DNA from: Escherichia coli
Lineage (GTDB): Bacteria > Pseudomonadota > Gammaproteobacteria > Enterobacterales > Enterobacteriaceae
Length of the DNA: 64,000 nt
NCBI RefSeq assembly: GCF_048403405.1
Contig: NZ_CP183129.1
Direction: 5' to 3' (one strand)
Of this stretch, positions 32,272 to 32,922 are shown one piece after another. The notes beneath the pieces are model-generated. The model saw only the letters and a program-made list of their open reading frames with translations, was not told where the DNA came from and made no database searches. Each line of letters opens with the position of its first letter. The first letter of the stretch is position 1. The position numbers and the translations under genes are program-made.

Positions 32272-32922
32272 TTAATTTGATTTATTTGCATCCATCAACG
32301 CTTTTAACTGCTCCGGCGAAAACGGTGGTTTGCGTCGGTGCAGCATCGCATGGCAATTAGGGCACACAGGAAGCAAATCATTAACTGGATCCAGCTGGTA
32401 ATCCTCTTTAATGGCTGAAAGCGGCACCAGGTGATGCATATGGATAAAGCCTTCTGCGATATCACCATAGATCTTCACCAGATCAACGCCGCATACGTTG
32501 CACTGGCATCCATGATGTTCGACCGCTTTATCTCGGGCCTTTTTATCGCGTTCATAGCGGTTTACTGTCACCTTTATCGCCGCACCTTCAACGTATGTCT
32601 CCTGCGACGGCAACTCATCCGGGAACAGAACGTCGGCTATGGTAGCTGCAGCGGCTTTATCCTGATGAATATGAAATCCCTGCTCTATGAGTAGCTTGAC
32701 ACATTTAGATTTTATTCCGCCGGTGAAATCCGCAGGGGTAAATTGCGTCCCCGTCATCAATGTCGCTGCGATGCCAGCAATCGCCTTCGAGGGGTAACGT
32801 CGGCCATGATATTCAATCTCATACAACCGTGCAGGCTGGAACTGATGAGTTTCTCCCGCATCCCATAAATGGATAGCTTCGATGATATACCGCCGCGGAA
32901 GATGGTCGGGAAGTTTATTCAT
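32272..32922 (-). CDS. HNH endonuclease with an uncharacterised N-terminal domain (putative modification-dependent/type IV restriction-like nuclease)
   Basis: C-terminal HNH/zinc-finger signature: CQCNVCGV...HMHHLVPLS...CPNCHAMLH; N-terminal ~120 aa of unknown fold. Abuts nanS convergently; first gene of the accessory region. Confidence 0.75.
   Translation of the reverse strand: MNKLPDHLPRRYIIEAIHLWDAGETHQFQPARLYEIEYHGRRYPSKAIAGIAATLMTGTQFTPADFTGGIKSKCVKLLIEQGFHIHQDKAAAATIADVLFPDELPSQETYVEGAAIKVTVNRYERDKKARDKAVEHHGCQCNVCGVDLVKIYGDIAEGFIHMHHLVPLSAIKEDYQLDPVNDLLPVCPNCHAMLHRRKPPFSPEQLKALMDANKSN

Follow-up and report, generated by a model that had tools for sequence, protein, structure and literature searches.

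ScoMcrA of Streptomyces coelicolor (SCO4631; PDB 5ZMM) is a 561-aa type IV restriction enzyme that depends on phosphorothioate (PT) and on 5-methylcytosine (5mC)/5-hydroxymethylcytosine (5hmC). Its known readers are a sulfur-binding domain (SBD) and an SRA domain; the structure also shows a small head domain, on a flexible attachment and taking no part in the dimer interface, whose function its authors described as unknown (PMC6224610). Other described enzymes join one recognition domain to an HNH nuclease: the EcoWI/SprMcrA family (SBD-HNH; NCBIfam NF045808), EcoKMcrA of Escherichia coli K-12 (element e14; PDB 6GHC), which carries the 5mC/5hmC-binding NEco domain, TagI/ScoA3IV (SRA-HNH), VcaM4I (EVE-HNH), DUF3427-HNH proteins and winged-helix (wH)-HNH proteins such as SruGXI. 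Here we analyse a 216-aa protein, head-HNH, encoded in a 64,000-nucleotide stretch of E. coli DNA (contig NZ_CP183129.1; the whole stretch is called the window). It follows the modular plan of TagI, VcaM4I, DUF3427-HNH and SruGXI and carries the ScoMcrA head. In ScoMcrA the SBD and SRA lie between head and HNH domain; the window protein has neither, and the SBD function that ScoMcrA holds within its chain is, now or formerly, on a separate neighbouring gene at this locus.

The head-HNH gene is under purifying selection and encodes an intact protein of two domains, in which a restriction-type head is tethered to an HNH nuclease; the gene arose as half of a mobile two-gene cassette whose other half, an SBD-HNH gene, has here lost codons 55–290. 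We read it, giving this reading roughly even weight, as a minimal modification-dependent (type IV-like) nuclease whose target would be selected by the head domain. The gene and its parts are as follows (pLDDT, predicted local distance difference test).

32272..32922 (-), head-HNH nuclease gene, 216 aa plus stop codon, ATG start
32653..32922 (-), N-terminal ScoMcrA-type head domain, aa 1–90, alpha-beta-beta-alpha-alpha-beta-alpha
32560..32652 (-), flexible linker, aa 91–121, pLDDT < 50 at 92–101 and 115–121
32275..32559 (-), HNH (beta-beta-alpha-metal) nuclease cassette, aa 122–216

The gene call draws on the list of open reading frames (ORFs), a RefSeq match, homologues and purifying selection, and the coordinates and length given in the initial annotation were exact. 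The product is identical to RefSeq WP_001037973.1, annotated 'HNH endonuclease', which is also annotated in E. coli TUM14771, a genome 99.98% identical to the window across 19.2 kb. On sequence grounds, 2590 homologues (best E = 7.9e-140) rule out a chance ORF. Among four E. coli alleles, with an intact partner or not, the ratio of non-synonymous to synonymous differences per site (pN/pS) was 0.07–0.18, from small counts of 2–5 non-synonymous versus 7–13 synonymous differences per allele pair. The head (aa 1–92) was identical in all four, which differ at 5–9% of synonymous sites, and the amino-acid polymorphisms revealed by this allele comparison fall mostly in the linker. Between genera, synonymous sites of the orthologues are saturated, with pN ~0.2.

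The C-terminal HNH zinc-finger nuclease that had been proposed from the sequence was borne out. Pfam PF01844 (HNH) spans aa 141–197 (E = 4e-4), and the C-terminal part matches the HNH domain of EcoKMcrA (PDB 6GHC) by sequence. Ten residues are invariant in 44 homologues (C141, C144, H161, H163, H164, C187, N189, C190, H191 and H195), of which C141, C144, C187 and C190 form the Cys4 zinc site, and D182, which occupies the position of the motif Asn of McrA, is nearly invariant. A profile of aa 108–216, which takes in a conserved lead-in (EG..VNRYERD..AR), matches 69 proteins without a head across phyla (E = 1e-44 to 1e-53), whose N-termini differ among themselves and for the most part carry no family label. 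The nuclease cassette, too, is modular.

AlphaFold2 modelled the whole chain as two domains predicted with confidence and, between them, a linker of low confidence (mean pLDDT 82.9, predicted template-modelling score (pTM) 0.44), and the head alone gave a pLDDT of 86.9 and a pTM of 0.79. The initial annotation had described an unassigned N-terminal domain of ~120 aa; the folded part is only ~90 aa, followed by the disordered linker, and Pfam now labels this domain ScoMcrA_N (PF26345). The head matches ScoMcrA residues 29–93 by sequence (PDB 5ZMM; E = 3.6e-5) and ScoMcrA also by fold, and homologues bear the precomputed PF26345 label; the assignment draws on these PDB matches and labels, and the local Pfam scan, whose library is older than PF26345, returned HNH only. 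With both the head and an intact HNH domain, the protein belongs to a family of small ScoMcrA_N + HNH nucleases. Conserved head residues include H26, F28, Y34, R41-R42-Y43, K46-A47, G50 and A52, and further P63, F66, G68-G69 and C74. The domain is not SRA-, EVE- or PUA-like, which the initial annotation had raised as a question; it has the fold of the ScoMcrA head. None of the recognised reader domains tested (SRA, EVE/PUA, DUF3427, NEco, MrcB_N, Mrr_N/wH and SBD) was detected in the protein; in particular, the SRA of ScoMcrA and the NEco domain of EcoKMcrA have no counterpart in it, no match to EcoKMcrA was found outside the HNH region, and head and SBD showed no homology (hhalign probability 0.15%).

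A protein search with the head alone returned 26 fragments only, whereas a head-only profile found 2971 clusters at 50% identity (E <= 1e-3; 1.84 billion representatives searched). The company of the head was counted as co-occurring Pfam families in the 107 best full-length head-carrying representatives: HNH in 41–51, HNH_2 in 18–24, EVE in 12–14, NOV_C/DUF3883 in 8, McrB-type AAA_5 in 7, DUF3427 in 4–6, SAD_SRA in 3–4, MrcB_N in 2 and RE_AspBHI_N in 1. In other organisms the head precedes EVE-HNH, SRA, DUF3427, McrB-type GTPase and other nuclease modules, whereas the window protein has a head without those reader folds. Foldseek with the head against AFDB50 gave 360 matches at E <= 1e-3, with names such as McrB, DUF3578, YDG, EVE, DUF3883 and restriction endonuclease. 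The head is thus an add-on of restriction-type proteins, placed mostly at the N-terminus, and the family occurs almost only in such proteins. The lack of dimer contacts by the head in ScoMcrA argues against a purely oligomerising role.

A natural domain swap bears on what the head does. In Klebsiella aerogenes (locus L089, 5260..5919) and Enterobacter sp. MGH 24 (locus L016, 3159..3905), the same HNH cassette (E ~1e-50) carries an N-terminal Mrr_N domain (winged helix) in place of the head. The protein is like head-HNH in cassette, in size (219 aa) and in its gene lying directly beside an SBD-HNH gene, which is the case in both genomes. In the type IV enzyme Mrr, recognition of DNA falls to Mrr_N, and the exchange places the head in the target-recognition slot. 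K. aerogenes encodes three small HNH nucleases side by side, with Mrr_N, SBD and head as their N-termini.

The head could instead sense a phage protein or cellular signal and free an otherwise restrained, non-specific HNH nuclease, as in abortive infection. In keeping with this, the head is unlike known DNA-modification readers, is flexibly tethered and precedes NTPase modules in some proteins, one Foldseek match is to a protein named for a ZorC EH domain, and in the window the gene adjoins Abi and toxin–antitoxin genes. However, the commonest partners of the head are reader-plus-nuclease type IV architectures and not sensor NTPases, the Mrr_N swap sets it in a DNA-recognition position, and no candidate inhibitor or antitoxin gene accompanies head-HNH across its contexts. 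We consider an infection-triggered nuclease unlikely.

The minimal type IV-like reading that we favour is also informed by the neighbouring gene. Head-HNH had been described as solitary. This is true of the window genome, but not ancestrally: its divergent neighbour is a 54-codon remnant of an SBD-HNH gene, and the pair is intact elsewhere.

32923..33058 (no strand), divergent intergenic region, 136 bp from the coordinates
33018..33035 (no strand), 18-nt palindrome TTGCGATSATGCTCGCAA, 23 nt upstream of the SBD-HNH start codon
33059..33223 (+), SBD-HNH remnant, codons 1–54 of 290

The remnant, recognised from the NF045808 match, blastn breakpoints, tblastn and a RefSeq pseudogene, starts 136 bp upstream of the head-HNH gene and derives from an EcoWI-like SBD-HNH 'phosphorothioated DNA-binding restriction endonuclease', 'EcoWI-like' here denoting family membership only. 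It covers profile positions 2–45 of 284 in NF045808 (61 bits; cut-off 180), where intact relatives score 437–439 bits. It also contains KPLLLL, a motif described for EcoWI-type sulfur-binding domains by Lutz et al. (PMC7461809); the family is marked by KPxxLL...PFW cavity motifs, which the remnant matches, albeit truncated. Homology to the intact alleles of D10, Br_167, IAI39 and O157 ends at ~33222 (blastn), after which the frame continues through unrelated sequence to a stop at 33244, ahead of the AbiE genes. Of the other 236 codons the window holds no trace, tblastn finding aa 1–54 only, which makes the truncation a deletion or replacement.

The EcoWI/SprMcrA family is thus the physical neighbour and likely co-transferred partner of head-HNH. 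Both proteins are small, with an N-terminal domain before an HNH nuclease, and share a lead-in helix and CxxC region before it (hhalign probability 93%). They are nevertheless distinct: the window protein lacks the SBD and scores 18 bits against NF045808 (cut-off 180), and its nuclease is HNH (PF01844), that of SBD-HNH being HNH_2 (PF13391).

Although the window has only the stump and so does not itself carry the cassette, the intact divergent pair is found at the same nanS locus in E. coli D10 and Br_167_kylling, at a different E. coli locus in EC0585, beside Wadjet in Klebsiella sp. R445, beside a type I restriction–modification (R-M) system in K. aerogenes and in two Citrobacter species. 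It is kept in six different genomic contexts, with a spacer of 136 bp in D10 and Br_167, as in the window, and of 179 bp in Klebsiella and EC0585. An integrative and conjugative element (ICE) of E. coli bears paralogues of both genes 4 kb apart (head-HNH 59% and SBD-HNH 51% identical). The conserved pair, together with the fusion of head and SBD in ScoMcrA, identifies the ancestral unit as a mobile two-gene cassette.

In E. coli both halves of this cassette have decayed. Among 5426 complete genomes, the full-length head-HNH gene is present in 1238 and the intact SBD-HNH gene in 1901, and only 337 hold both intact and adjacent. The truncation junction of the window recurs in 967 genomes, about 730 (by coverage classes) retain only a 103-nt 3′ stump of head-HNH, and either nuclease gene is kept alone in about 900–1500 genomes each. 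In IAI39, a 571-bp deletion (equivalent to window 32378..32948) has taken the head domain and start codon, leaving a 35-codon 3′ stump (locus L177, 5969..6073) beside an intact SBD-HNH gene. In O157:H7 (locus L178, 4990..6157), everything from nanM through head-HNH is gone and SBD-HNH adjoins a type II Zorya system. Each gene has thus been lost independently, which indicates that the two are not co-dependent. Orphan head-HNH alleles show no relaxed constraint, their head domains being identical in protein sequence, although the counts are small. EcoWI cloned alone restricts PT-modified plasmids (PMC7461809).

These losses bear directly on the possibility that head-HNH is an obligate accessory of the SBD-HNH nuclease, the two acting together as a split ScoMcrA, for example as a heterodimer making double-strand breaks or with head-HNH as second-strand nickase; the window copy would then be a functionless relic. 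The divergent adjacency (136–179 bp) is kept as the pair moves among at least four unrelated chromosomal contexts, and the two ICE paralogues have diverged similarly. Head and SBD are fused in ScoMcrA (PMC6224610), and EcoWI leaves many nicks, with double- to single-strand breaks at ~3:1 (PMC7461809). Against this, ~967 genomes hold head-HNH with a dead partner, ~730, IAI39 with its intact SBD-HNH included, have only the head-HNH stump, and O157:H7 keeps SBD-HNH alone. Moreover, pN/pS is unrelaxed in orphan alleles (again on small counts), EcoWI by itself has activity both in vitro and in vivo (PMC7461809), and most head-HNH genes beyond the enterobacterial clade have no SBD neighbour. We regard an obligate accessory role as quite unlikely.

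The palindrome TTGCGATSATGCTCGCAA is the only conserved block in the intergenic alignment and is unique in the window, where 0.01 chance matches are expected. Almost every SBD-HNH gene retrieved has an identical copy upstream, with one mismatch in EC0585 and no match in O157:H7, and the copy also precedes the 51%-identical ICE paralogue of SBD-HNH, which has no adjacent head-HNH gene. The palindrome belongs to the SBD-HNH leader or promoter, probably as an operator or leader hairpin of PT-dependent nuclease genes. In the window it persists before a dead SBD-HNH gene.

Returning to head-HNH as a minimal type IV-like nuclease, we propose that the head would bind DNA marked by something that the host chromosome lacks, a foreign modification being the likeliest candidate, and that the tethered HNH domain would then nick or cut nearby. 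By analogy with EcoKMcrA, TagI and ScoMcrA, the protein probably dimerizes through its HNH domains, and it would work independently of its SBD-HNH partner. A Dam-dependent specificity of the wH type would be suicidal in Dam+ E. coli (PMC11037411). The initial annotation had also proposed a modification-dependent restriction enzyme, and the restriction-type head family and the defence-island setting agree with it; its term 'McrA-like' holds for the nuclease only, because the head is unrelated to the N-terminal domain of EcoKMcrA. In a bolder form, which we offer tentatively, the head would be an unrecognised reader of foreign DNA, perhaps of a PT context or of some other base or backbone modification, and head-HNH the minimal member of a new modification-dependent family, forming with SBD-HNH a split ScoMcrA in enterobacteria that offers two specificities, each half of which may be kept or discarded.

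Within the type IV-like reading, a PT-related target is our leading guess, though a speculative one. Its links to PT biology are the SBD fusion in ScoMcrA, the cassette with SBD-HNH and a neighbour in Citrobacter freundii, where a 56%-identical head-HNH paralogue adjoins a PT-related cluster (locus L094, 8115..14651) of an SspA/DndA-like cysteine desulfurase, a dnd-associated protein, a PbeC/DndD-like ATPase and a PbeA helicase. In a sister genome (locus L093) the same paralogue lies between IS elements without the PT-related cluster. Against a PT target, the head has no SBD homology and the association is lineage-restricted.

Several observations weigh against the type IV-like reading or its PT form. 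Binding of modified DNA by the head is something we infer, the ScoMcrA authors having assigned the head no function, and a full-text literature search gave no paper assigning it one and no experiment on head-HNH proteins. The net charge of the head is only about +2. Where EVE, SRA, SBD or MrcB_N is present, that domain could do all the reading, and the role of the head would then be another. The SBD link is confined to Enterobacteriaceae, and at least nine other contexts have no SBD neighbour: none was found in Pantoea, C. freundii, Enterobacter sp. C2, Shewanella and three other Enterobacteriaceae, nor at ~60 environmental loci, many of them on short contigs, taken from metagenomes searched with a head-only profile built around an environmental member, the only exceptions being E. 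coli ICE copies. A PT-dependent nuclease would fit poorly with the Pbe/Dnd-like cluster next to it in C. freundii. Last, PADLOC v2 gave no significant full-length system match, only partial generic mREase_IV matches (E = 7.6e-6 and 2.5e-5).

That head-HNH is expressed but effectively inert or decaying, and simply yet to be lost from a locus in rapid flux, we hold to be very unlikely. The locus is eroding, given the truncation of SBD-HNH here, the 571-bp head-HNH deletion of the IAI39 type and the nanM-to-head-HNH deletion in O157. Truncated protein variants also exist in databases (P0004 and P0058), and a promoter scan found no consensus sigma-70 promoter in 32923..33058. Yet the ORF is full length with all catalytic and zinc residues intact, pN/pS is ~0.1–0.2 with a head invariant among alleles that differ at 5–9% of synonymous sites, and orthologues are conserved across genera. 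A mobile-element or homing HNH endonuclease, processing ICEs or plasmids or cutting selfishly at specific sites with no defence role, is highly improbable. In its favour, the ICE-borne E. coli paralogue adjoins a TraI_2 relaxase, phage HNH families show weak matches to the HNH part, and an integrative island begins where the gene lies. However, homing and phage HNH endonucleases have an intron, intein or phage location and a phage-type DNA-binding module, whereas head-HNH is chromosomal or ICE-borne, with copies beside nanS in non-mobile contexts. Its head has restriction modules as partners and no match to a homing-endonuclease DNA-binding domain, the match that the initial annotation had named as a refutation of its own reading, and PHROGs families match the HNH part only (aa >= 106; weak, best E = 9e-9).

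The surroundings of head-HNH fit the minimal type IV-like nuclease in that, as had been proposed, the gene lies inside defence islands, and this held in every genome examined; its defence neighbours across genomes include Wadjet, type I R-M, McrBC, Kiwa, GmrSD/NACHT, BREX and AbiE. The gene order in the window is fimD-fimA, fimE, fimB, nanC, nanM, nanS, head-HNH and then an integrative island, which in related strains ends at tRNA-leuX, E. coli defence hotspot #37 (PMC12707154). Base composition shows no sharp island boundary in the window. Two further claims of the initial annotation held: nanS (31284..32264, +) is convergent with head-HNH, the stop codons being 7 bp apart, and no methyltransferase gene adjoins it, the nearest being BREX pglX ~21 kb away. 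In the window nanS is an uninterrupted 326-aa ORF, whereas RefSeq gives a partial pseudogene plus a 29-aa 'hypothetical protein' in TUM14771 and others and an intact gene in Br_167_kylling; the discordance is probably an annotation inconsistency.

Other defence genes lie further into the island. An AbiEii toxin/AbiEi antitoxin pair (33524..34928, -) stands immediately past the truncation junction, followed by genes of the kind usual on CP4-like integrative elements (DUF4942, CbtA/YeeU, RadC and DUF932). At 48092..63007 (-), brxA, brxB, brxC, pglX, pglZ and brxL make up a complete type I BREX system, with a two-gene HEC-01 (A/B) candidate defence pair between pglX and pglZ (52775..54459; PADLOC). 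In D10, beyond the intact SBD-HNH gene, there is a ~84%-identical copy of the brxL 3′ end and downstream sequence in opposite orientation to the window (window 47843..48271 versus locus L179, 4442..4541 and 5634..5956), a hint that the cassette formerly bordered BREX and that the 33.2–47.8 kb segment came about later, by rearrangement or insertion. An inversion was considered as the cause of the SBD-HNH truncation, given this opposite orientation, and was rejected, no other part of SBD-HNH being present in the window.

The head-HNH gene is already annotated and the ScoMcrA_N + HNH architecture already catalogued. What appears to be undescribed is head-HNH as a free-standing family, the conserved enterobacterial cassette that it forms with PT-dependent nucleases and the reciprocal decay of the cassette halves in E. 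coli. If the enzyme is non-specific or inert, it amounts to an annotated 'HNH endonuclease' of the ordinary kind in a defence hotspot already known. If instead the head reads a DNA feature, the type IV toolkit would gain a new recognition module, present in ~3000 protein clusters, and a domain unexplained in the ScoMcrA crystal structure would gain a function. Small reader–nuclease fusions already serve as modification-mapping reagents, as in EcoWI-seq for phosphorothioates, so a 216-aa enzyme of new specificity would have practical value. For E. coli itself, the locus offers a clean natural experiment on which mobile elements or modification systems select each half of the cassette.

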